Positions 2,679 to 20,757 of a stretch of DNA of 27,718 nucleotides are shown here, piece by piece. This DNA is from a virus. The notes under the pieces are model-generated. The model worked only from the letters and a program-made list of their open reading frames with translations, was not told the DNA's origin and made no database searches. The DNA is taken from UHGV virus genome UHGV-0268347; one strand, given 5' to 3'. The position numbers were made by a program, and so were the translations under genes. How positions within the stretch are numbered: the first letter of the stretch is position 1; each line of letters opens with the position of its first letter.

Positions 2679-2723
2679 TGGTGGAGCTGGCGGGAGTTGA
2701 ACCCGCGTCCGAAATTCCTACAT
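2679..2723 (-). other. ssrA: Prophage attachment-site core: 45-nt duplicate of the 3' end of tmRNA gene ssrA
   Basis: Reverse complement reads ATGTAGGAATTTCGGACGCGGGTTCAACTCCCGCCAGCTCCACCA, identical to the ssrA 3' end as I recall it; the match stops abruptly at 2724, so this is a partial att copy, not the gene. Confidence 0.8.
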
Positions 2724-2808: not shown

Positions 2809-3855
2809 TTAATGCTCTGTCGCCAATCTGTCGCCATTGTAGGTCAACGAAGGTTGAGCCTTCCCTTTGTTTGTTACAATTTCATCAAAGATAGCTGGAT
2901 TATTATCTTTCAGTAATCTTGCTAGTATAATGATTTGCCCAGACGAGCCATCATCCTTGAATGAAAGGAAATTATCGGTAATATCAAGAATATCAATGGT
3001 AAATTTGAAGTAGGTTTCAATTGTATCGCCAAGTTCAATGCTGGACATGAAGTTAGTAATCATTTCATATCCATCAAAGTATAAAGTTGCATGTTCATTT
3101 AACTCCATGGGAGTTAGGCAAAGCATTCGATTAAGTTCGGATAAGTGTTTTTCTATTGAATGAAGAGATTGCATTTGACGGATTAAAACTTCGTCAAACT
3201 GAGAGCCACGATTAGATGAATTTATCTTCTCTAGGTTTTTTAGTATATCAACCCAGTGATTATTTACTTCACGTATGTATTCTTTATCTGTATTTTTAGG
3301 CCGTCCCTTCTCTGGTGAGCTATTTATGAAAATATATCTATATAGATGTATTGGGTAGTTAATTTTATAACTTATCTCTTTAGTACCATAATGACGTTCG
3401 CGTTTAATGGTTTTGTTAGGTAAATTGGTGAAATAATCAGTAACGAACTTTAGATGGCTATAGTAGCTATCAGATAGATTCTTTTGCTTGGTTTCCTCAA
3501 TTTGTCGGTTTGTTTGAACTGTGCGGTGTATGTTTGCTACGACAGCAACAAATGGTATGGACAAAGAAAGTAAGGCGATAGGAAGCTTGCTAATTGCAAT
3601 GAAATTATTAAAGCCCTCACTATCAAATTGAGGGGAATGTCCAAGCCAGGAAAATATACCAAAGTATATCGCTGAAAATACAGGAATCCTAAGTGATTGT
3701 TTAAATAAGTATTGACTTGTTAATGGCCTTTCATCCATGTTAAAGCCTTTTTTTGATACGCATAGATATAATTCAAGGCATATATATATAAAATATATTA
3801 TGATAAGTAAGTACGATATCCATGGGTATTGTTGGATATAGTTATTAACAAGCAC
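2809..3855 (-). CDS. Hypothetical multi-pass membrane protein (348 aa), AT-rich integrase-adjacent moron
   Basis: ORF between int and att; N-terminus has about three hydrophobic helices (WISYLLIIIYFIYICLELYL, IPVFSAIYFGIFSWLG, LPIALLSLSIPFVAVVANI), then a roughly 230-aa soluble domain; visibly AT-rich. GTG start at 3855 overlaps the int stop, preceded by GGAG; the next in-frame Met is residue 40. Confidence 0.55.
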   Translation of the reverse strand: MLVNNYIQQYPWISYLLIIIYFIYICLELYLCVSKKGFNMDERPLTSQYLFKQSLRIPVFSAIYFGIFSWLGHSPQFDSEGFNNFIAISKLPIALLSLSIPFVAVVANIHRTVQTNRQIEETKQKNLSDSYYSHLKFVTDYFTNLPNKTIKRERHYGTKEISYKINYPIHLYRYIFINSSPEKGRPKNTDKEYIREVNNHWVDILKNLEKINSSNRGSQFDEVLIRQMQSLHSIEKHLSELNRMLCLTPMELNEHATLYFDGYEMITNFMSSIELGDTIETYFKFTIDILDITDNFLSFKDDGSSGQIIILARLLKDNNPAIFDEIVTNKGKAQPSLTYNGDRLATEH

Positions 3856-4885
3856 TTTCTAATTTTCTCCATCCAAGGTTAGCAAGAGGATTTTTGGTTA
3901 CAGCATCTTCCAGATGGTCGGGAGCGAAGTGGGCGTAAATCATTGTCATTTTTATATCGACATGGCCCAGAATATCGCGCAGCACCAGTATGTTTCCGCC
4001 ATTCATCATAAAGTGACTTGCAAATGTATGTCGTAATACGTGTGTGCATTGCCCTTCTGGTAGCTCGATACCAGCTCGTTTAACCGCACGTTCAAAAGCT
4101 TTCCTACAAGGTGTAAATAATTTTCCCCTATTCTTAGGCAGTTCTTCATATAAATCCTTTGAAATAGGCACTGTTCGGTTTTTCTTTCCTTTAGTCTTGG
4201 TATAAGTGATACGGTATTTTGATACCTGATGACTCTGTAAGTTTTCGGCTTCGCTCCAGCGTGCGCCGGTGGCCAAGCATATTTTTGCAATCATCAGCAG
4301 ACTGGGGCTTTGAGAATCAGCACAGGCATCCAGCAGACGTTTAATTTCTTCCGGGGTCAGGAACGCCAATTCACCCTCAGCAATTTTAAATGTTGGCAGC
4401 CCAGCAAGCGGGTTGGGGGCTGACCAGTGGCCCAGCTTTTTCAGTGTACCAAAAACAGATGATAGGTTGCGCTGTTCAAGATTTACCGTGCGGGGCTTAA
4501 CGGGCGACATAAGCGTGCCATCTTCATTTCGTACTTCACCTTTTAACCGTGCTTCGCGGTATTTCGTAAACTCACCAGCTGTCAGTTCTGAGGCGATGGG
4601 ATCGCCTAGACCATTACAGATAATTCTAAGTTTCGCCATGAGGCGCTTGGGGTCTGCGAGTGTTTGACCATACAGGGAATACCACAGCTCAATTAATTCT
4701 GATAGATGTCGCCGATCTTCCTTTTCCCCTAGCCATGGTTTTTTGTTCACTTCTTCCATTGTGAAGCTTTCAAACGCAATGGCTTCGCCTTTGGTAGCAA
4801 ATTGCTTACGCACGCGCTTACCATTGCGTCCATTGGGATAGCACTCACACAACCATTTTCCGTTCGGCTGTTTTCTGATGGTCAT
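3845..4885 (-). CDS. int: Tyrosine integrase (P2/186-type)
   Basis: 346 aa; C-terminal catalytic region with HVLRHTFASHF and MIYAHF (R..H-x-x-R..Y pattern); positioned next to att and the repressor as in P2/186. Confidence 0.93.
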   Translation of the reverse strand: MTIRKQPNGKWLCECYPNGRNGKRVRKQFATKGEAIAFESFTMEEVNKKPWLGEKEDRRHLSELIELWYSLYGQTLADPKRLMAKLRIICNGLGDPIASELTAGEFTKYREARLKGEVRNEDGTLMSPVKPRTVNLEQRNLSSVFGTLKKLGHWSAPNPLAGLPTFKIAEGELAFLTPEEIKRLLDACADSQSPSLLMIAKICLATGARWSEAENLQSHQVSKYRITYTKTKGKKNRTVPISKDLYEELPKNRGKLFTPCRKAFERAVKRAGIELPEGQCTHVLRHTFASHFMMNGGNILVLRDILGHVDIKMTMIYAHFAPDHLEDAVTKNPLANLGWRKLESAC

Positions 4886-4888
4886 AAG

Positions 4889-5527
4889 TTAGAGGTTCTT
4901 GATTACTTTGACTGCACGTCCTACGACTTCCACATCATCTACAGAACATTCAAATGAAGTGTCATCTTGGTTAACTACTATTTTGTTTCCGGGTATGCGC
5001 GCAATTTTGACGATGCTTTTAACTCCGTCCATATCGACTAACCAGAAGCCATTACTGACTTGTTTAACAGACGTATCCACTACAAAGCTATCATTAGCTG
5101 TTTTAACAAATAAAGCGTTGGATGAGTCACCATCGAGCAGGCTGCTATCAAGAAGAATTTCATCACTTGGCTGCAGTTCGCCGTTCTTCAGTTCAACACG
5201 TTTGATGCTAGGAGCAACGATCTTAGAAAGTGGTCTTACAGTGACGGAAGGTTCATTTTTGAGATTTATTTCTTCGTTCTCACACGCATACATATCTCCT
5301 TGACCAGTAGCCAGCCATAGAAGGGAAGCTCCTGTTTCAAGGGCACATTGGATTACCCATTCGGCAGGAAAGCTATCCCTTAAGTATCTGTTAGCCATAG
5401 TGCTTTTTGATACTTCCAGATGTTCGCAGAGCTGCTGTCGTGAGCTGAAGTTGTAAGCCTTAATAAGCCTATTAATCGCATCGCGCCCACCACTATCATT
5501 CCCCGCCTTGATTAAACTCATAATCAA
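4889..5527 (-). CDS. cI: CI-type lysogeny repressor
   Basis: 212 aa, divergent or convergent with the apl-cII operon and immediately upstream of int; N-terminal region resembles the phage CI-repressor HTH domain (186-like). Confidence 0.75.
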   Translation of the reverse strand: MIMSLIKAGNDSGGRDAINRLIKAYNFSSRQQLCEHLEVSKSTMANRYLRDSFPAEWVIQCALETGASLLWLATGQGDMYACENEEINLKNEPSVTVRPLSKIVAPSIKRVELKNGELQPSDEILLDSSLLDGDSSNALFVKTANDSFVVDTSVKQVSNGFWLVDMDGVKSIVKIARIPGNKIVVNQDDTSFECSVDDVEVVGRAVKVIKNL

Positions 5528-6429: not shown

Positions 6430-6726
6430 ATGCTGACGAAAGAACCATCATTTGCATCGCTGCTGGTAAAACAAAGCCCGGCAATGCACTACGGTCACGG
6501 CTGGATCACGGGTGAGGATGGAAAACGCTGGCATCCATGTCATTCACAAGATGAATTGCTGTCTGAATTGACCACGAGGAAACGGAGAAAGTCCAAATGT
6601 ATGTGGCAGAAAGTGAAGTGGTTTATCAGTTTCGTTACAGAGGGGAGAGTTATTCAGTACCTGAAGATGATTTGCTCTGTTGCTATCCGTCATTGTCGGG
6701 CGATGGCAGTTACTTTTTCACGTTAA
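6430..6726 (+). CDS. Fil-like small protein (3' end uncertain)
   Basis: MLTKEPSFASLLVKQSPAMHYGHGWITGEDGKRWHPCHSQDELL...; occupies the position of 186 fil after cII. Its 3' part overlaps the next ORF in another frame, so the true stop is uncertain. Confidence 0.4.
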   Translation: MLTKEPSFASLLVKQSPAMHYGHGWITGEDGKRWHPCHSQDELLSELTTRKRRKSKCMWQKVKWFISFVTEGRVIQYLKMICSVAIRHCRAMAVTFSR

Positions 6727-7486: not shown

Positions 7487-7713
7487 TGGCTGATGCAATG
7501 GATCTCGTACAGCAGCGAGTTGAAGAAGAACGCCAACGTCATATCCGTGCTGCCCGTGCCAAAACGCCGGGCGTGTCCCGCGTGCTTTGCGTTGAGTGTG
7601 AAGCGCCAATTCCGCCAGCACGCCGCCGTGCCATTCCGGGTGTGCAGCTTTGCATTACCTGTCAGGAAATCGCAGAGCTGAAAGGCAAACATTACAACGG
7701 AGGTGCTGTATGA
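7486..7713 (+). CDS. TraR/DksA-type C4 zinc-finger protein
   Basis: 75 aa with CVECEAPIPPARRRAIPGVQLCITCQ (four Cys in C-x2-C...C-x2-C arrangement), as in the small zinc-finger ORFs of P2/186 early regions. Confidence 0.6.
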   Translation: MADAMDLVQQRVEEERQRHIRAARAKTPGVSRVLCVECEAPIPPARRRAIPGVQLCITCQEIAELKGKHYNGGAV

Positions 7714-8567
7714 GCACCATCCTGAAATGGGCGGGAAATAAAACCGCCATTATGTCCGAACTGAAAAAACACCTTCCTGCTGGCCCGCGACTGGTTGAAC
7801 CTTTCGCGGGTTCCTGTGCTGTGATGATGGAGACGGATTACCCCAGCTATCTGGTTGCGGATATTAATCCTGATTTAATCAACCTCTATAAAAAGGTTGC
7901 CTCTGATTGTGAATCGTTTATATCTCGCGCCAGAGTTTTATTTGAGATCGCAAACAGGGAGGTGGCTTATTACAACATAAGGCAGGAGTTTAATTACTCC
8001 ACTGAAATTACTGATTTCATGAAAGCGGTATATTTCCTGTATCTCAATCGTCACGGTTACCGTGGTTTATGTCGCTATAACAAGAGCGGGCATTTCAACA
8101 TTCCCTACGGTAATTATAAAAATCCGTATTTCCCTGAAAAAGAAATTCGCGCATTTGCAGAGAAAGCCCAGCGTGCAACGTTTATCTGCGCAAGCTTTGA
8201 TGAAACGCTGGCGATGCTGCAGGTGGGGGATGTGGTGTATTGCGATCCGCCGTATGACGGTACGTTTTCCGGCTATCACACTGATGGTTTCACTGAAGAT
8301 GACCAGTATCACCTGGCATCCGTTCTTGAACATCGGTCATCAGAAGGACATCCGGTCATTGTTTCTAACAGTGATACATCCCTGATCCGTTCGCTGTATC
8401 GCAATTTTACTCACCACTACATCAAGGCAAAACGCAGCATCGGTGTAGCAGCTGGTGAGAGTAAATCTGCAACAGAAATCATCGCTGTTTCCGGGCCGCG
8501 CTGCTGGGTGGGATTTGATCCTTCGCGTGGCGTGGATAGTTCTGCCGTGTACGGAGTGCGTGCATGA
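7710..8567 (+). CDS. dam: DNA adenine (N6) methyltransferase, Dam family
   Basis: 286 aa; N-terminal KWAGNK motif ([15 protein letters not shown]), [16 protein letters not shown], catalytic DPPY ([10 protein letters not shown]); start overlaps the upstream stop and the stop overlaps the A start. Confidence 0.9.
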
Positions 8568-10978
8568 GCCATGCTGATATGAACAACTGCAGCGGCTTTA
8601 ACAAGGTCGCCGCAGCATTCTCATGGAACAGCCCGAAAAAGGCCATTAACCCTTATCTGGACCCGGCGGAAGTTGCGCCGGTTTCTGCGCTTTCAAACCT
8701 GATCACTCTGTACGCTACCGATAACGAGCAGGAACAACTGCGCCGCGAGGCACTGAGTGATCAGGTCTGGGAGCGTTATTTCTTTAATGAATCCCGTGAT
8801 CCTGTCCAACGCGAAATGGAGCAGGATAAGCTCATTAGCCGGGCAAAGATGGCGCATGAGCAGCAGCGTTTTAATCCAGACATGGTCATTCTGGCTGACG
8901 TCAACGCCCAGCCTTCCCATATCAGCAAGCCGCTGATGCAACGTATTGAATATTTCAGCAGCCTGGGCAGGCCAAAGGCTTATTCCCGCTATTTGCGTGA
9001 GACGATTAAGCCATGTCTGGAACGACTGGAGCATATACGCGACAGCCAGCTATCTGCATCTTTTCGTTTTATGGCAAGCCATGAAGGGCTGGACGGTCTG
9101 CTGATCCTGCCTGAAATGAGTCAGGATCAGGTGAAACGCCTGTCTACCCTTGTCGCTGCGCATATGAGCATGTGTCTTGATGCCGCTTGTGGTGATTTGT
9201 ACGCCTCCGATGATGTTAAGCCAGAAGAAATCCGCAAGACATGGGAAAAGGTGGCTGCAGAAACCCTGCGACTGGATGTCATACCGCCTGCGTTTGAGCA
9301 ACTCCGCCGGAAAAGAAACCGCCGCAAACCTGTGCCTTATGAACTCATTCCGGGTTCGCTGGCGCGTATGCTGTGCGCCGACTGGTGGTATCGGAAATTA
9401 TGGAAGATGCGTTGCGAATGGCGGGAAGAGCAGTTGCGTGCTGTCTGCCTGGTCAGCAAAAAAGCATCTCCCTATGTCAGCTATGAAGCCGTGATGCATA
9501 AACGTGAGCAGCGCCGTAAGTCGCTGGAGTTTTTCCGTTCTCATGAACTGGTGAACGAAGACGGCGACACGCTGAACATGGAGGATGTGGTAAACGCCAG
9601 CAGCAGCAACCCGGCGCATCGCCGCAACGAGATGATGGCCTGTGTTAAAGGCCTGGAGCTTATCGCGGAAATGCGTGGTGACTGCGCCGTTTTCTACACC
9701 ATCACCTGTCCGTCACGTTTCCATTCCACGCTAAATAACGGCAGGCCAAACCCGACCTGGACCAACGCGACAGTAAGACAAAGCAGCGATTATCTGGTCG
9801 GCATGTTTGCTGCATTTCGTAAGGCTATGCACAAAGCCGGGTTGCGCTGGTATGGCGTGCGGGTGGCTGAGCCGCATCATGACGGCACAGTTCACTGGCA
9901 CCTGTTGTGTTTCATGCGCAAAAAAGACCGCCGCGCCATTACTGCATTGTTGCGTAAGTTTGCCATCCGAGAAGACCGCGAGGAGCTGGGCAATAACACG
10001 GGGCCACGCTTTAAGTCTGAGCTGATAAACCCGCGCAAAGGAACGCCGACAAGCTACATTGCGAAATATATCAGTAAGAATATTGACGGGCGTGGTCTGG
10101 CTGGCGAGATCAGTAAGGAAACGGGTAAATCCCTGCGTGATAACGCTGAATACGTTAATGCCTGGGCGTCTCTGCATCGTGTTCAGCAATTCCGCTTCTT
10201 TGGCATTCCGGGGCGTCAGGCTTACCGTGAACTGCGATTGCTGGCTGGTCAGGCGGCAAGGCAACAGGGTGACAAAAAAGCAGGTGCGCCGGTACTGGAT
10301 AACCCGCGCCTTGATGCCATCCTGGCTGCTGCTGATGCTGGTTGTTTTGCCACCTACATCATGAAGCAGGGCGGCGTACTGGTTCCCCGCAAATATCACC
10401 TCATCAGAACCGCTTATGAAATCAACGAAGAGCCAACCGCCTATGGCGATCACGGTATTCGTATTTATGGCATCTGGTCACCCATTGCAGAGGGCAAGAT
10501 CTGCACTCATGCAGTGAAGTGGAAAATGGTTCGTAAGGCCGTTGACGTTCAGGAGGCGGCTGCCGACCAGGGCGCTTGCGCCCCTTGGACTCGTGGCAAT
10601 AACTGTCCCCTTGCTGAAAATTTGTACCAACAAGGGAAAGACAAATCAGCTGATGGGGATACCAGAACGGATATCACCCGTATGGATGACAAGGAGTTGC
10701 ACGATTACCTGCACAGTATGAACAAAAAAGAACGCCGGGAACTGGCTGCAAGATTACGCCTGGTGAAACCGAAACGGCGTAGAGACTACAAACAGCGAAT
10801 TACAGACCATCAACGACAGCAGCTCGTCTATGAACTGAAGTCCAGAGGATTTGATGGCAGCGAGAAAGAGGTCGATTTACTCCTTCGCGGCGGCAGCATT
10901 CCGTCAGGAGCAGGCCTGCGTGTCTTCTATCGGAACCAGCGTTTGCAGGAAGATGATAAGTGGCGGAACCTGTATTAA
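8564..10978 (+). CDS. A: Replication initiation endonuclease A (P2 gpA / 186 A family)
   Basis: 804 aa; metal-binding HWH motif ([10 protein letters not shown]) and tyrosine region ([10 protein letters not shown]) typical of rolling-circle initiators; position after the early operon. Confidence 0.93.
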
Positions 10979-11131: not shown

Positions 11132-11320
11132 ATGCAGGACTATTTTTTGGAGTCTTTGAAGCTCCAGCGCATTGATTTTTTTCTTAAGCTTGTAGCGGCC
11201 AGTGAGTGTAGTGATGAAGAGAAGGGGCTGGCTCTGCAGTGGGTTTCTGAATTGACTGATGAACTCATGGCAAAAATCAGAACCCACGAATACAACCGCT
11301 CAATGGATGTCATCAGTTGA
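11132..11320 (+). CDS. Hypothetical SOS-operon protein (62 aa), tum-region ORF
   Basis: ATG with strong RBS (taggagg) directly downstream of the LexA box; no family recognised. Confidence 0.45.
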   Translation: MQDYFLESLKLQRIDFFLKLVAASECSDEEKGLALQWVSELTDELMAKIRTHEYNRSMDVIS

Positions 11321-11330
11321 GGTGACTTTT

Positions 11331-11564
11331 ATGCGCATTGAAATAATGATCGATAAAGAGCAGAAGATTAGCCAGTCTACCCTGGACTCCCTTGAATCCG
11401 AGCTTTACCGCAATCTGAGCCCCCTGTATCCCAAAGCGGTAATTCGTATCCGTAAAGGTAGCGCCAATGGTGTTGAACTGAGCGGGTTAAAACTGGATGA
11501 AGACAAAAAGCGAGTGATAGAAATCATGCAGCAGGTCTGGGAGGACGATAGTTGGTTACATTAG
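11331..11564 (+). CDS. DinI-family protein
   Basis: 77 aa, MRIEIMIDKEQKISQSTLDSLESELYRNLSPLYPKAVIRIRKG...IMQQVWEDDSW; resembles DinI in N-terminal MRIE and C-terminal acidic W motif; RBS gaggtga. Confidence 0.7.
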   Translation: MRIEIMIDKEQKISQSTLDSLESELYRNLSPLYPKAVIRIRKGSANGVELSGLKLDEDKKRVIEIMQQVWEDDSWLH

Positions 11565-11797: not shown

Positions 11798-12838
11798 TTG
11801 ATTAAAGTTGTTGATCTTTTTTGCGGAGCAGGTGGCTTAACTCATGGTTTGCAACGAGCAGGGTTGAATGTGGTTGCAGGCTATGATATTGATGCTACAT
11901 GTCGGTATGCTTATGAAAAAAATAACAATGCTTTATTTGTGCAAAAAAGCGTCACTGAACTTGATGAAGGGGAAATAAGTAAGCATTTTAAGGATGCATC
12001 AATTAAAGTTTTAGCTGGATGCGCTCCATGCCAGCCATTTTCTAGTTATACAAATACTGATAAATCAGTAAAAAAAATAAAAGACCATCGATGGTCTTTA
12101 TTGTATAGCTTTGCTAAGCAAATTCAATTATGTGCTCCAGATATAGTCACAATGGAGAATGTTCCAAGAGTTATTAACCACAAAGTTTTTAAAGATTTTG
12201 TGAAGACTTTAAAGTCTGAAGGGTATTTCGTTTGGTATGATACTGTATTTTGTCCTGATTATGGAATGGCCCAAAGCCGATCTAGATTAGTGTTATTAGC
12301 GTCCAAGTTTGGCGAGATAAAACTAATCCCGCCAACACATGATAAAAATAACTATAACACTGTACGTAGCGTTATTGGTGGATTGCCTCCTATTGATGCT
12401 GGATCGAGTGATGAGAAAGACAGACTTCATTATGCTGCATCTTTATCACCATTAAATATGGAGCGAATAAAACATTCTAAGCCAGGTGGAACATGGAAAG
12501 ATTGGCCTGAGTACTTACGGGCGTCATGCCACACCAAAGAATCAGGATCTTCTTACACTGCAGTTTATGGAAGAATGAGCTGGGATAAACTTGGCTCTAC
12601 AATTACAACACAATGTATAGGTTTTGGTAATGGTCGATTTGGTCATCCAGAACAAAATAGAGCTATTAGCCTAAGAGAGGCAGCTTTGCTTCAATCTTTT
12701 CCTCTAACTTATGAATTTTGGCCAGCTGAAGTAAAAGTTGAACTCAGGAATGTTGCACGACTGATTGGTAATGCTGTGCCGGTGAGGCTCGGTGAAGTTG
12801 TTGGGCAAAGTATTATTGAACACCTTAAAAGAAAATAA
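11798..12838 (+). CDS. DNA (cytosine-5) methyltransferase
   Basis: 346 aa with canonical C5-MTase motifs: I DLFCGAGG, IV GCAPCQPFS (catalytic Cys), VI ENV, VIII QSRSRLVLL, X GNAVPV. TTG start with RBS agggagga and extended -10 (tgcTACAAT) upstream; visibly AT-rich. Confidence 0.92.
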   Translation: MIKVVDLFCGAGGLTHGLQRAGLNVVAGYDIDATCRYAYEKNNNALFVQKSVTELDEGEISKHFKDASIKVLAGCAPCQPFSSYTNTDKSVKKIKDHRWSLLYSFAKQIQLCAPDIVTMENVPRVINHKVFKDFVKTLKSEGYFVWYDTVFCPDYGMAQSRSRLVLLASKFGEIKLIPPTHDKNNYNTVRSVIGGLPPIDAGSSDEKDRLHYAASLSPLNMERIKHSKPGGTWKDWPEYLRASCHTKESGSSYTAVYGRMSWDKLGSTITTQCIGFGNGRFGHPEQNRAISLREAALLQSFPLTYEFWPAEVKVELRNVARLIGNAVPVRLGEVVGQSIIEHLKRK

Positions 12839-12863
12839 AAAGGGCGAATCGCCCTTTTTTTTA
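12839..12863. terminator. Bidirectional rho-independent terminator shared by the convergent gene pair
   Basis: Stem agggcg-aat-cgccct flanked by an A-run on one side and a T-run on the other (aaaagggcgaatcgcccttttttttag). Confidence 0.75.
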
Positions 12864-14819
12864 GATACCATCAACAATTTTCATTATTCGTGCAGCATCA
12901 TCTTTTTTGCTCTGATACTCAGAGTATGCTTGTTTGGATTGTATTATAAGATCGCTATATGTTAATACCTTTGCATTTATAGATTGTAGCTGTGAGCGAA
13001 TATAATTATCTCCACTTCCGTCATAACCTTTGCCGACAAGAAAAACTACATCTATCGGTGGTATTTTTCCGGCAGGGCAACTATTTGGGTTGTTTCTAAA
13101 CCACTGCTCTGTGGCAACAACATATTTCCTTCCTTGACCTACTAATGCCAAAATATCAGGATATACATTTGGTCTTTTCATTTCAATGATGACGTGTTTA
13201 CCTGAAACGGTTTTGAAGGCTATATCAATTCTTGCACCACTTTCAGCGTCAGGGTTAACCTCTTTCAATTCCTTAGTCAGGGTTTGTTCCATAACTGTAG
13301 AACCAGTAACCCTCTCCCATGATGGGTCTAACAGCCATAAGTGGTCATAAAGATATTTTTGTACAGCCTTCTCTAACTCATTGTCATCGGTGATTTTTTG
13401 AAATTTCTCAATAACTTTCAATCGCTGTGATGTAATCTCATAAAAAAGGCTTGCCTCAATATCATTTACAGAAGCAAAAACCTCCCTAAAATGTTCTGAG
13501 TTTAAATCGCTAATTTTATCTAAAGCCTCAAGGTTATCTTTTATTCTTAATCTTTCAAAAGCAAGAACTGTATTTTTTAATACGGTTTTTTTTGCAATTT
13601 TCTGGTTTTCTTCATCTCCAGAAAATCTAAATGTGTTAATTTTGCCTAGTAATTTTTCGGCGCTGTTTCTTTCATGTTTTGACATGGAATCAAGCCAATC
13701 ACTTACAGCAGGTGAAGTTTTTTTAACCTCGCTAAGACCTTTTGCTCTTCGCCATTCATCCCATTCTTTATCTATTTTTTGTAATGTCCGTTCTAAGAAA
13801 CCCTTAATCACAGGATAGCGTGGATCATTCTGCTGTAATTTCTGTCGGGATGAGGTTGCCATGTCAGGTTTTTCATTTTCATCTAAAAAATCTGCGACAA
13901 GTTCCCCTACTAAATAATTTGTAAAAACCTTTGCGCTTCCGAATTCAAGCAATATATCTTCTTCAAATACCCGCCCATTTGATATTACGGTTATCGTGTT
14001 GTTAGATATTTCAGGGTCTTTTTTAAGTTGAGATGGTTTCTCAACACTTCCTACATAACCAGTAATGAAATAATCTACGCCTTCAAAAGATAATTTGTTA
14101 TCTAGAAGGCTTTTTTTAGAAAGATTTTTGCAAGATTTTACTCTTGCGGGATCTGAACTACCAAACTCCCATAAAAATTCAAGATCTGAAAGGAAGTCTC
14201 TATCTTCAGTAGTTATCTCAGTGTCATTGATTTTAACTATAAAATCATGACCAGGACCAATTATGCTAAACCGTCTGGCAAGTCTTTTTCTTAGATAGGT
14301 CTGAGTTCTATCAATGGATTTTTTTAAATCCATAAGAACTATTGTCGTCCCTATACTAAAGTCTTTCGGAACATTAATAATATTTGCAACATATTGTTTA
14401 CTGCTTTTTATACAGCGTTGCAATTCATCAACGTCAACTTCAAATCCCTGAGGCGTTTGGCCAATTTTGTGAGAAAATACTTGGATTTTGTTAGCTAATG
14501 AAAACATTGCTAATTTACCAATGCCTTTTCTACCCATGACTTGTCGTTGTAATCCATCACTTTTATACCTTCCACTTTCTCTTCTGGCATATCCAACTTT
14601 TAGGAATTTATTAATGATGTCATCTTTTGACATTCCATGTCCATCATCTTTAATTATTACCTTTTCATTTTCAACATCTAGAGTGATGTCTACATTTTTA
14701 GCATCCGCATCCCAAGCATTTGAGATTATTTCAGTTAGAACAGCTGGTGTGTTAGAGTAAAGACTCATACCTAAATGATTCAATACATTCAGGTCTATTT
14801 TAATTTCGAAATCGGACAT
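12861..14819 (-). CDS. GHKL-family ATPase fused to a C-terminal PD-(D/E)xK nuclease domain (652 aa); candidate restriction/defence effector
   Basis: N-terminus has Bergerat-fold motifs: N-box EIISNAWDADAKN, G1 IKDDGHGMS, G2 GRKGIGKLAMFS. C-terminus has GARIDIAF...GKHVIIEMKRP (acidic D532 and E546-x-K548 after hydrophobic strands). RBS aaggaaagga; visibly AT-rich. Confidence 0.85.
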   Translation of the reverse strand: MSDFEIKIDLNVLNHLGMSLYSNTPAVLTEIISNAWDADAKNVDITLDVENEKVIIKDDGHGMSKDDIINKFLKVGYARRESGRYKSDGLQRQVMGRKGIGKLAMFSLANKIQVFSHKIGQTPQGFEVDVDELQRCIKSSKQYVANIINVPKDFSIGTTIVLMDLKKSIDRTQTYLRKRLARRFSIIGPGHDFIVKINDTEITTEDRDFLSDLEFLWEFGSSDPARVKSCKNLSKKSLLDNKLSFEGVDYFITGYVGSVEKPSQLKKDPEISNNTITVISNGRVFEEDILLEFGSAKVFTNYLVGELVADFLDENEKPDMATSSRQKLQQNDPRYPVIKGFLERTLQKIDKEWDEWRRAKGLSEVKKTSPAVSDWLDSMSKHERNSAEKLLGKINTFRFSGDEENQKIAKKTVLKNTVLAFERLRIKDNLEALDKISDLNSEHFREVFASVNDIEASLFYEITSQRLKVIEKFQKITDDNELEKAVQKYLYDHLWLLDPSWERVTGSTVMEQTLTKELKEVNPDAESGARIDIAFKTVSGKHVIIEMKRPNVYPDILALVGQGRKYVVATEQWFRNNPNSCPAGKIPPIDVVFLVGKGYDGSGDNYIRSQLQSINAKVLTYSDLIIQSKQAYSEYQSKKDDAARIMKIVDGI

Positions 14820-15059
14820 ATCCTTTCCTTGCTGAAGCTTGTAGGCAGAGCTTAAGCCTACTCATGTGAACAAAATCCCTCGAAACTAAACATTGATTTT
14901 GACTAAATGTCAAATGTAGATGTTGCCTTGTGTAATGCATATCTATGCTGCATGAATACGCATGATCTCTTAAGGATCGCTTTTGTTGAAGCACGCCAGA
15001 ATTGGCGGGCTTTTGCTTATGTCATGCATGTGCATGAAAACTACTACATGAAGCGGGCA

Positions 15060-15078
15060 GGCGTGGCGGGGATACGAG
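15060..15078. other. Probable cos site (cohesive-end region)
   Basis: ggcgtggcggggatacgag shares its first 13 nt with the 186/P2 cohesive end as I recall it (GGCGTGGCGGGGA...), at the expected place between the cargo hotspot and portal gene Q. Confidence 0.5.
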
Positions 15079-15166
15079 CGCGCGCAGCGGGGTAAAATGG
15101 CCAAAATCCGGCGCAGCCTCTGGCCCGCTGGTGGCCTCATTTTGCGTAGGGGGGATAAATGTCAGG

Positions 15167-15202
15167 ACAAAAAGAAACGCCCCGCAGAATGCTGCTGGGG
15201 CG
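15167..15202 (-). terminator. Putative terminator downstream of Q (minus strand)
   Basis: Imperfect GC stem (cgcccc...ggggcg) followed on the minus strand by a T-rich run. Confidence 0.45.
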
Positions 15203-15239
15203 TTGTGAGAATTGGTCAGTTATTGATGTTGTGAGTATG

Positions 15240-16289
15240 TCAGCCTCGTTTGCTCTTAAGTCCTAAGTCATAGGCTTCAAAACGGATCACCTCTTCACCC
15301 AGCCAGTTGTTAAGCTCCTGCAGTCGCTTTTGCAGTGGCATCAGTTCATTGCGGACGAAAACACGGCTCGCCTTTTCCACATCACCGAAGCCACCAGTGT
15401 TGTTGGGAATGATACCCATCATTTGCGGCGGCACACGATGCGCCGCCATCATGTCGTCCCGGCTTACGTTCTTGATGTTCAGAAACTCATCCTTCGCCGC
15501 GACTTCTGATAACGGGATAATCTGAAGTCCGTCCTTTTTGCCGTTAGGAGAGTACATAAACAGATTGCGGAAGTTACCTGGTCCTTTGGCGCTTTTCATT
15601 GCATTGCGGAGGTTGTTCACATCCTCCTGGTTTTGTGCGGCGTCGGTCATGTACATGATGAAGCCTGCATGACTGCCGTTGATGTAATACTTCCGGCGGA
15701 ACAGCGTGGCGGACTCGTTGAGCAGGGCTGACGGAATGGCAGAAAGATAACCGGGCAGGCCGTAGATCTCCTGGTTGATGTCCGGTTCCATCAGATGAAA
15801 AATGCTGCCTTTCGCGAACTGATACGGCTGGGTTGTCATACCGTATTGCACAAACCAGTAGGTATCCAGGTCTAACCCGCGTCGGGTGTATTTTGCCAGA
15901 GCAGGCTCTAGGGCGATAACTTCACCGAAGCGGTTCGTGCGTTTCTCCAGGTAGGCGTTACCAAATACCAGATAGTCCTGCACAAAACGTGAAAAAGCCT
16001 GCTGGCTGAGCAGCGGGTGAGGGATGTAGGTGCTGGTCAGAATGTTGCATTTCACCGCAATCGGTGAGCTGTGATGCACGGCGGCGCGGAAGGTTCGCGC
16101 CAGTCCGTCGAAACTCACAGGCGGCTCATACCAGCGATCCATCTGTACGCATTCCACATAGTCCAGCAGTTCACGGCGGTCCAGAACAGGAACGGGATCG
16201 CCGAAGCTGAATGCTTCGGCTGTAGTTTGACTTTTAAGCTGGATCTGTTTCGTCGCCGCAGCGCGGTTCTTCTTACTCTTTCCCATCAA
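15240..16289 (-). CDS. Q: Capsid portal protein Q
   Basis: 349 aa; size, position next to cos and upstream of the terminase ATPase, and sequence match P2 gpQ. Confidence 0.9.
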   Translation of the reverse strand: MMGKSKKNRAAATKQIQLKSQTTAEAFSFGDPVPVLDRRELLDYVECVQMDRWYEPPVSFDGLARTFRAAVHHSSPIAVKCNILTSTYIPHPLLSQQAFSRFVQDYLVFGNAYLEKRTNRFGEVIALEPALAKYTRRGLDLDTYWFVQYGMTTQPYQFAKGSIFHLMEPDINQEIYGLPGYLSAIPSALLNESATLFRRKYYINGSHAGFIMYMTDAAQNQEDVNNLRNAMKSAKGPGNFRNLFMYSPNGKKDGLQIIPLSEVAAKDEFLNIKNVSRDDMMAAHRVPPQMMGIIPNNTGGFGDVEKASRVFVRNELMPLQKRLQELNNWLGEEVIRFEAYDLGLKSKRG

Positions 16290-18052
16290 AAAATCTCCAC
16301 AATATTGCTGGTATTGGCGGATTCGCCCTGCAGCGGTTCGTTAAACAGTGCGTGCATCGTTGCCCAGGCCAGATCCGCATGGCTGGCTTCTTCGCTGCGG
16401 CTGGCTTCATAGGTCGGGCGGTTGCCACTGGCGGTGGTGGAGCGACGGATTGCCATAAAGGACTGCGCTATGTCGGTGTGTCCGGCGTCAAACTCCAGAC
16501 GGCGGTGGCTGATAATGTCGTAGGCCTTGAGTACCAGGGCGTTTTTAACGTTGGGGTTGTAGACAAACTCCCGGACGGCAGGAAAGAATGCTTTCACGTT
16601 CTCGTAAACCCCGTGGCCGACGCCAGTTGAGTCGATGCCGATGTATGTCACGTTGTACTGTTCGGTCAGTTTTTTGATGGCGTCAGCCTGGGCGCGGAAG
16701 TCCATCCCGCGCCACTGGTGACGCTCAAGAATGCGGAACTTACCGCCCGGCACGGCTGGCGGTGCCACCACCACGCACCCGGCGCTGTCGCCGTTCTGCG
16801 TACCTTTTGCCGGGTCATAACCGATCCACACCTCGCGCCAGCCAAACGGGCGCAGCGCCAGTGCATGAAAGTCGGTCCAGACTTCCCAGCTGTCCACCAT
16901 GCACGCCTGCAGCTCGCTGAGCGGGAACACGGACGCGAGATCGTCCACAAACTCGCACATCAGCAGGTTCTGGTATTCGTCCGGGCTGTACTCCATGCGC
17001 AACTGGTCAAGGTCGAACAGGTTACAGCCGCCGCGCACCGCATCTTCCACGGTGACTATCTGGCGGTACTGCCCGTCTGCGCACAGCAGGCCGGGGGCCA
17101 GATTGCGGTGGGACAGGTCGATGTCCACCTTATCGGCTTTGTTGCGCCCTCGGTTGAACAGCGCACCGGACCAGAACGGATAAGCACTGTGTGTCAGGCT
17201 GGATGGCGTGGAAAAATAGGTTTGTCGCCATTTTTTGTGAATAGCCATACCGGAAGCCACTTTGCGCAGCTCCTGGAATTTCGGTATCCAGAAATATTCA
17301 TCCAGATACAGGTTGCCGTGGTAACTCTGGGCCGTGCGGGCATTGGTGCCGAGGAAGTAAAGCGTGGCCCCGTTAGGAAGCACCATCGGATCGCCTTTCA
17401 GCTCCACCTCCACTTCTTTGGCGAAGTCGATGATGTACTGCTTAAAGACGTGGGCCTGTGCCTTACTGGCGGAAAGGAAAATCTGGTTACGCCCGGTAAG
17501 CAGGGCGTCAATCAGGGCTTCACGGGCAAAGTAAAAGGTCGCGCCGATCTGGCGTGACTTCAGCAGATTGCGGATGCGGTTGGTTTTTCCGGCTTCCCAC
17601 CAGTGGCGCTGGTAGTTGAACATGGAGGAATGGAAGATTTCTTCCAGCTTCTCAATCTGCTCATCGGTGAAAACATTCTTTTCCGGCTGACGGCGTGGGC
17701 CTTTGTTGCGGTTGGCGACGTTTGGGTTTAAGTCGGCTTCGTTGCCGCCATTGTTAAACTTGCCGATCCGCGCGTGGCGCTCCGACTGGCGCGCCAGCAG
17801 GTCAATCTCTTTGAAATCTTTCCCTTCTTTGTGCTCCTTCATGATGAGCTGACAGTAGCGTGCGGCGGTGGTGAGCTGCATCTGATCCAGCGGACCATAG
17901 TCACCCCACTTGTCGCGTTTTTTCCAGCTGTGAACGGTTGCAACTTTCTCGCCCAGCATTTCAGCAATGCGGGCTACGCGGTATCCCTGAAAGTACAGCA
18001 GCATGGCCTGCCGACGGGGATCGAGATCTGCGGGTGTCAGTGTGGTGTTCAT
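16286..18052 (-). CDS. P: Terminase ATPase (large) subunit P
   Basis: 588 aa; P2 gpP-like, overlapping Q by 4 nt; Q-P leftward operon as in P2. Confidence 0.9.
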   Translation of the reverse strand: MNTTLTPADLDPRRQAMLLYFQGYRVARIAEMLGEKVATVHSWKKRDKWGDYGPLDQMQLTTAARYCQLIMKEHKEGKDFKEIDLLARQSERHARIGKFNNGGNEADLNPNVANRNKGPRRQPEKNVFTDEQIEKLEEIFHSSMFNYQRHWWEAGKTNRIRNLLKSRQIGATFYFAREALIDALLTGRNQIFLSASKAQAHVFKQYIIDFAKEVEVELKGDPMVLPNGATLYFLGTNARTAQSYHGNLYLDEYFWIPKFQELRKVASGMAIHKKWRQTYFSTPSSLTHSAYPFWSGALFNRGRNKADKVDIDLSHRNLAPGLLCADGQYRQIVTVEDAVRGGCNLFDLDQLRMEYSPDEYQNLLMCEFVDDLASVFPLSELQACMVDSWEVWTDFHALALRPFGWREVWIGYDPAKGTQNGDSAGCVVVAPPAVPGGKFRILERHQWRGMDFRAQADAIKKLTEQYNVTYIGIDSTGVGHGVYENVKAFFPAVREFVYNPNVKNALVLKAYDIISHRRLEFDAGHTDIAQSFMAIRRSTTASGNRPTYEASRSEEASHADLAWATMHALFNEPLQGESANTSNIVEIF

Positions 18053-20106: not shown

Positions 20107-20757
20107 ATGAGCCTGAGTCCCGCACGGCAGCATCGCCTGCGCGTTCAGGCTGAACAGGCCGCCCGTGAGGGCGGCAGCGTTCGCCACGCGTCGGGCTATG
20201 ACCTGATGTTGCTGCAACTGGCGGAAGATCGCCGCCGTCTCAAGGGCGTTCAGTCCACGGTCAAAAAAGCGGAAATCAAAGTAGAGCTGCTGCCGAAGTA
20301 CGCCGCCTGGGCGGAGGGTGTCCTGGCTGCCGGAGGCGCTCAACAGGATGACGTGCTGATGTACGTGATGCTGTGGCGCATTGATGCCGGAGATTATGCC
20401 GGGGCGCTGGAGATCGGGCGTCATGCTCTGCGTCATGGCTGGGTGATGCCGCTGGGTAACCGCAACGTGCAGACTGTGCTGGCAGAGGAAATGGCAGACG
20501 CGGCACAGAGCGCAATGCTTGCCACTACCGGCTTTGATGTCGATCTGTTGATGCAGACGCTGGAGCTGACAGACGGTCTGGATATGCCGGACCAGTCACG
20601 GGCGCGTCTGCATAAAGCGATTGGCGCAGTCCTGAGTGAAAGCAATCCGGCTTCCGCCCTTAATCATCTCAACCATGCGTTACAGCTCGATCCCCGCTGT
20701 GGCGTGAAAAAAGACAAACAGCAGCTGGAGCGCAGACTGCGCAATGACAGCCGCTGA
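20107..20757 (+). CDS. M: Terminase endonuclease (small) subunit M
   Basis: 216 aa; P2 gpM-like, immediately after N. Confidence 0.88.
   Translation: MSLSPARQHRLRVQAEQAAREGGSVRHASGYDLMLLQLAEDRRRLKGVQSTVKKAEIKVELLPKYAAWAEGVLAAGGAQQDDVLMYVMLWRIDAGDYAGALEIGRHALRHGWVMPLGNRNVQTVLAEEMADAAQSAMLATTGFDVDLLMQTLELTDGLDMPDQSRARLHKAIGAVLSESNPASALNHLNHALQLDPRCGVKKDKQQLERRLRNDSR

Follow-up and report, generated by a model that had tools for sequence, protein, structure and literature searches.

Most of a P2-family prophage is contained in the 27,718-nt stretch of DNA analysed here (the window), which ends before the last late genes. The integrase, CI repressor and early genes are followed by genes for a Dam-type methylase, the replication protein gpA and a DinI-like protein, and then by a cargo segment encoding a C5 cytosine methyltransferase and a putative type II restriction enzyme. 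Beyond the cargo, after a non-coding stretch, lie the leftward genes for the portal protein and the terminase large subunit (homologues of Q and P), the scaffold and capsid genes, the gene for the small terminase subunit (M homologue), and then genes for lysis and tail (Table 1). Q, P, O, N and M, as well as the downstream head, lysis and tail genes, were all full length. The G+C content, 33-39% across the cargo, rises to 51-61% from position 15001 on.

From position 2679 to its end, and from there onward only, the window was 99.996% identical to a prophage of Escherichia coli strain HS4. A 3' fragment of ssrA (tmRNA; ...GGACGCGGGTTCAACTCCCGCCAGCTCCACCA on the minus strand) lies at this edge; it scored 37.9 bits against the Rfam tmRNA family, below gathering, and a gathering scan of the whole window returned no RNA family. 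Homology to HS4 begins at 2679 and homology to the flanks of other E. coli stops at 2723, and the fragment marks the prophage attachment junction. Fels-2 integrates at ssrA, and the window prophage, with its own ssrA 3' fragment, shares this Fels-2-like edge. The prophage is very probably a P2-family member of the Felsduovirus type (Fels-2/SEN8-like), apparently intact and integrated in E. coli at the ssrA 3' end.

Two further features were seen near this junction. A pair of genes on the plus strand encoding the RnlA toxin (435-1616) and RnlB antitoxin (1609-1971) lies beyond the ssrA fragment, outside the prophage, in a segment that adjoins ssrA in other E. coli strains. Between the attachment junction and the integrase sits a minus-strand ORF (2809-3855) in a region of 33-37% G+C, with no Pfam match and a weak PADLOC match to a '2TM effector' (E 2e-4). 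The att-integrase position is a minor defence hotspot of P2-like phages (PMC13586616).

Table 1. Features of the window, in order of position.
Feature	Position	Strand	Remarks
ssrA (tmRNA) 3' fragment	2679-2723	-	attachment junction
Integrase	3845-4885	-	
CI repressor	4889-5527	-	
Early genes			between CI repressor and gpA
Dam-type methylase	7650-8567	+	
Replication protein gpA	8564-10978	+	
DinI-like gene	in 11259-11564	+	
Cargo segment	11798-14819		gpA side of cos; C5 methyltransferase and putative restriction enzyme
C5 cytosine methyltransferase	11798-12838	+	Pfam DNA_methylase (PF00145, E 5e-57); PADLOC MTase_II/DrmMII
GHKL-ATPase protein, putative type II restriction enzyme	12861-14819	-	Pfam HATPase_c_3; PADLOC REase_II, E 9e-91
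Distal cluster of three YGCAT motifs	14935-14966	+	at -124, -111 and -101 from the predicted top-strand nick
Inverted repeat	14994-15007	+	CGCCAgaatTGGCG then GGCTTTTGC; between distal YGCAT cluster and core; terminator-like
Left flank of core	15030-15059	+	TGCATGAAAAC...AAGCGGGCA; right-end side of packaged genome (predicted); part of 55-bp family core
Fourth YGCAT motif	15031-15035	+	at -29 from the predicted top-strand nick
19-nt cohesive-end core (predicted)	15060-15078	+	GGCGTGGCGGGGATACGAG; read from sequence, homology to SEN8/Fels-2/186/P2
Right flank of core	15079-15086	+	CGCGCGCA; short, conserved
Rho-independent terminator of leftward P-Q operon (predicted)	15167-15204	-	hairpin ACGCCCCAGCAG-CAUU-CUGCGGGGCGU then UUCUUUUUG
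Portal protein gene, Q homologue	15240-16289	-	Pfam Phage_portal; called phage portal protein by PGAP (strain HS4)
Terminase large subunit gene, P homologue	16286-18052	-	Pfam Terminase_5, Terminase_6N, Terminase_6C
Scaffold O and capsid N genes			between P and M
Terminase small subunit gene, M homologue	20107-20757	+	Pfam Phage_term_smal
Lysis and tail genes			beyond M

The predicted cohesive-end core and its flanks

A sequence-only reading of the window had proposed a cos site containing a 19-nt GC-rich element within 15040-15100. Such an element is present on the plus strand, with 74% G+C, and window-wide it was the best match to each of three reference 19-mers. The likeness to the 186 and P2 cohesive ends that the same reading had noticed is real (15/19 and 14/19, with the first 13 nt the same as in 186), but the 19-mer is the Felsduovirus variant and not the P2 or 186 sequence. 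The core differs from the 19-mer of P2 at five positions and from that of 186 at four, all but one of them in the last six bases, which is why a pattern search with these two 19-mers at up to three mismatches gave no hit. In Markov-simulated windows, at most four mismatches to the 186 19-mer occurred in 29 of 300 (∼10%), and at most five to the P2 19-mer in 141 of 300 (∼47%). Taken alone, the core's likeness to the P2 and 186 ends would be weak evidence.

The core was identical at 19/19 positions in the Felsduovirus phages SEN8, Fels-2 and SopEPhi, and in Yersinia phage MLG42, which carries the same 19-mer yet is classified in Elveevirus. SEN8 is an isolated phage whose cos was identified during annotation, and its genome paper names 'ggcgtggcggggatacgag', exactly the window 19-mer, as cos (PMC5427200). 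The records of SEN8, SEN4, SEN5, P2, 186 and PSP3 all start at the base aligned with 15060, and the cut positions annotated in the 186 and PSP3 records lie at the 5' end of the 19-mer on the top strand and at its 3' end on the bottom strand. In the literature we found no end-sequencing report for this variant of the core, and a literature search on its reverse complement gave nothing relevant. The exact 19-mer matched at least 120 stretches in an IMG/VR scan, all of them internally and with no physical-end evidence. One IMG/VR contig (L170) contained two exact 19-mers in opposite orientation, at 3447-3465 (minus strand) and 6704-6722 (plus strand), ∼3.2 kb apart. Two short contigs (L015 and L017) of a single assembly of Escherichia sp. 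E1V33 start ∼40 nt left of the core, which probably represents an assembly break at a cos region common to two P2-like prophages.

Alignment with the P2 and 186 cos sites, which had been suggested as a check, gave gap-free flanks. Anchored on the core, the left flank matched at 25/35 positions to P2 and to 186 and at 31-32/35 to SEN8, Fels-2, SopEPhi and MLG42, and it also aligned gap-free to P4-like and SEN8 sequences. The right flank matched at 6/8 positions to each of P2 and 186, and at 8/8 to the Felsduovirus phages and MLG42. The blocks TGCAT-AAAAC, AAG-GGGC and GCGCGC were invariant in the eight sequences compared. In a larger alignment of 57 sequences, comprising the window and 56 related loci, these blocks and most columns of the left flank were at least 95% conserved. 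Conservation peaked within and beside the 19-mer; it ran from ∼14935 to ∼15086 and then dropped to background, stopping 7-8 nt past the predicted bottom-strand nick. The conserved part is strongly asymmetric: the gpA side, predicted to become the right end of the packaged molecule, has ∼125 nt of it and the Q side almost none. At position 15042 the window has a T (AAAACT) where P2, 186, the P4-like sequence, SEN8, Fels-2, SopEPhi and MLG42 have a C (AAAACC). A T at this position was also present in at least four related prophages (L061, L065, L068 and L069), suggesting that it is probably tolerated.

A small ORF (14907-15095) spans the conserved block, which carries a hypothetical-protein annotation in several phage records. 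We rejected it as a gene, since substitutions showed no codon periodicity (0.131/0.133/0.140 for the three positions); 17 of the 57 sequences had no open frame over the block.

Four YGCAT motifs, a distal cluster of three and a fourth close to the core, lie within this block. Their positions are common to the window, SEN8, 186, P4 and a P4-like satellite, and in P2 they stand at -123, -111, -101 and -29; the sequence between the motifs has diverged. The YGCAT columns were conserved across the 57 sequences, and the 135 nt left of cos contained a median of 3 TGCAT motifs, where the remainder of these loci would predict 0.13. The motifs are candidate binding sites for terminase or an accessory protein. 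Between the distal cluster and the core lies a terminator-like inverted repeat whose hairpin (-15.6 kcal/mol) was no better than that of shuffled sequences (z -0.88). Its stem columns were conserved, and the stem of the relatives, GCCCGCCAG..CTGGCGGGC, is stronger. On visual inspection, 186 and P4 also show an inverted repeat, with another sequence, roughly as far to the left of the nick. That the repeat in the window acts as a terminator is a guess.

On the Q side, the core is 161 bp from 15240, where the Q ORF has its lowest coordinate and its stop codon; the distance is 167 bp in P2 (cos at 1-19, stop codon of Q at 187) and 176 bp in 186 (cos at 1-19, stop codon of the portal gene at 196). 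The sequence-only reading had the distance right, at about 160 bp, and the side wrong: it placed the element upstream of Q, but the minus-strand orientation of that gene puts it downstream. The predicted terminator of the P-Q operon, with arms at 15176-15183 and 15197-15204, folded at -20.6 kcal/mol (z -2.35) and is the counterpart, in the same position, of P2 tQ (160-181) and 186 tW (164-187). The Q protein was 89% identical to that of SEN8 and 62-63% identical to those of P2 and 186. The corresponding values were 99.3% and 63% for gpP, the enzyme expected to cut cos, and 94% and 49% for gpM, the expected cos-recognition subunit.

Cargo and variable DNA around cos

The gene for the putative restriction enzyme starts 240 bp from the predicted right end and is transcribed away from cos, the same right-end placement and orientation as P2 old. 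With a cut at 15059/15060, the C5-methyltransferase/restriction pair would be the last genes before the right end of the packaged molecule. This agrees with the earlier proposal that the methyltransferase/nuclease module sits at the packaged end, as P2 old/tin do. At the N terminus of the predicted restriction protein is a GHKL (HATPase_c_3) ATPase domain, and the match to the PADLOC REase_II model PDLC03419 spans the full length of the protein; PGAP labels the product only 'ATP-binding protein'. A promoter scan of 14700-15350 found no sigma-70-like site and did not place the promoter of the leftward restriction gene.

The content of the cargo side varies within E. coli. It was covered in only 2 of the 1210 E. 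coli genomes with a match, and most of the E. coli matches listed start at window positions 14931-14937, which marks the right edge of the variable cargo, at ∼14931. The gene content between gpA and gpQ is thus variable at this locus, beside cos and between stretches of conserved phage DNA, and the cargo is of defence type as predicted by homology.

We compared this arrangement with that of 80 loci, each from a different species, that encode a Q relative. In 65 of the 80, a cos-like match lay on the side of Q, and on the strand, where the window has its own, with one match per locus save for a weak second match in a single case (L064). The exact window 19-mer was present in 33 loci, and a one-base variant, GGCGTGGCGGGGCTACGAG, in 13. 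Among the 58 loci with a strong match, the gap between gpA and cos was 460-4390 bp and the interval between cos and Q had a median of 1.6 kb (range 148-3499 bp). This interval was 260 bp or less in 9 of the 58 and 600 bp or more in 49, and therefore variable DNA is commonly present on the Q side too. Annotated genes were found between cos and Q in all five phages inspected (Fels-2, SopEPhi, SEN8, Cartapus and 500465-1).

Variable DNA flanks cos on both sides in this lineage, and the window belongs to the minority with an empty Q side. The sequence-only reading had taken cos to divide the hotspot from the packaging genes, which describes the window and does not hold generally. The Q side of cos is known as a hotspot or proposed pick-up site (Dodd and Egan in 1996 and Nakayama et al. 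in 1999; both as cited in PMC5694545). In this lineage either side of cos can hold cargo, so surveys of hotspots should take cos as their anchor and not rely only on gpQ.

Proposed packaging function and competing explanations

In the window, gpA, the DinI-like gene and the cargo lie left of the core and the Q stop codon lies right of it, with the tQ-like terminator between. The core is homologous to known cohesive ends, its flanks are conserved, it is placed beyond the 3' end of Q after the P-Q terminator, and a cognate terminase is encoded by the same prophage. Taken with the identity of the core to that of SEN8 and the 65 related loci, this evidence bears out the proposal of a cos site: we hold with high confidence that 15060-15078 is a cos homologous to those of the P2 family, the residual doubt concerning the activity of this copy and the exact nick positions.

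The packaging of P2 and 186 (PMC3931495, PMC7617512) suggests how such a site would act. After excision and replication, the gpM/gpP terminase would bind the conserved region of ∼14935-15086, nicking the top strand at 15059/15060 and the bottom strand at 15078/15079. One genome length would be packaged with 19-nt 5' cohesive ends, 5'-GGCGTGGCGGGGATACGAG being on the left end. The left end would then start 161 bp from the end of the portal gene Q, and the right end would bear the methyltransferase/restriction pair. We infer by homology where cleavage falls and which polarity the overhangs have, as well as a binding role for the YGCAT motifs and the activity of this copy.

The site could also be a relic, a true P2-family homologue that is no longer cut in a defective prophage or after a disabling change. 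The T at 15042, the weaker stem at 14994-15007 compared with the relatives and the end of the window before the last late genes are in keeping with such a loss. However, the same T occurs in the four related prophages named above, the genes from Q to M and those for head, lysis and tail are full length, the terminase is close to that of an isolated phage, SEN8, and the HS4 prophage is nearly identical. We regard loss of cleavage as improbable, with a small share of the likelihood left to it.

Far less likely still is that the ∼150-bp block is kept mainly as a terminator for the rightward DinI operon, as a promoter for the leftward cargo or as a small conserved ORF (14907-15095), with the 19-mer incidental. 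The terminator-like hairpin would suit such a role, as would the P2 old-tin transcription that starts ∼150 bp left of cos and the hypothetical protein annotated in phage records. Yet the block lacks codon periodicity and, in 17 of the 57 sequences, an open frame, and the promoter scan gave no sigma-70-like site. The block and its YGCAT positions are common to P4, which has other genes there, and conservation is highest in and beside the 19-mer. Regulatory elements of this kind are compatible with a cos and no substitute for it. A chance match of a GC-rich stretch to the 186/P2 cohesive end, for all the simulated rates given above, is already refuted by the comparative data (the exact Felsduovirus 19-mer, the homologous flanks, the correct position and the recurrence in 65 related loci) and retains a negligible probability.

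The identification of 15060-15078 as a P2-family cos fixes the packaged genome ends for this prophage and gives exact predicted nick coordinates. It also assigns the restriction-modification pair to a known cos-adjacent cargo position, predicted to be the right end of the virion DNA.

Comparison with known cos sites and hotspots

The cos of the P2 family has long been known, with its 19-nt 5' ends and a 55-bp core common to P2, P4 and relatives (Padmanabhan et al. 1974, as cited in PMC3931495; Ziermann and Calendar 1990, as cited in PMC3931495 and PMC5694545). Like the window, P2 and 186 have a 19-nt core starting GGCG-GGCGGGGA, share AAAAC...AAG-GGGC and GCGCGC in the flanks, and have the site 161-176 bp beyond the Q stop (the range including the window) with a terminator between. 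Both carry non-essential genes on the far side of cos, namely old/tin in P2 and the tum/orf97 region in 186. SEN8, Fels-2 and SopEPhi are closest in cos sequence but differ in what surrounds it: they have one or two genes between cos and Q where the window has 161 bp with a terminator, and their cargo left of cos differs from that of the window.

P4 and P4-like elements have the same four YGCAT positions, an inverted repeat left of the nick, and a 19-mer followed by CGCGCGC. P4 has the P2-type 19-mer GGCGAGGCGGGGAAAGCAC, encodes no terminase and needs a helper phage. Homology between P2 and P4 is limited to the cos region, and P4-like elements have a variable cargo hotspot directly beside cos (PMC9122126). 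In strain HS4, the same prophage adjoins a P4-like satellite that lies outside the window. The cos of this satellite (3589-3607 of locus L009) is of the P2 type, with five differences from the 19-mer of the neighbouring phage.

These likenesses raise the tentative possibility, which we consider rather less than even, that the packaging signal of P2, 186, P4 and the Felsduovirus phages reaches ∼125 bp beyond the nick on its right-end side. Such a signal would comprise a fixed YGCAT array and an inverted repeat, with the motifs docking the small terminase subunit, and the last six bases of the 19-mer (AAGCAC, AAGCAT or TACGAG) would be free to vary by lineage. If so, these six bases could decide which helpers package which P4-like satellites. 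The YGCAT array may already stand in the 1990 cos paper.

Earlier studies described the cargo hotspot that adjoins cos in the gpA-gpQ interval, and surveyed it (Rousset et al. 2022, PMC9122126; de Sousa and co-workers 2026, PMC13586616), and type II restriction-modification is among the systems reported at this P2-like locus (PMC9122126, PMC13586616). The cos site, the exact 19-mer and the cos-side position of the cargo are all already known, and the locus contains no new kind of element. The window is one more instance of the cos-proximal defence hotspot of P2-like phages, with all of its cargo on the gpA side.
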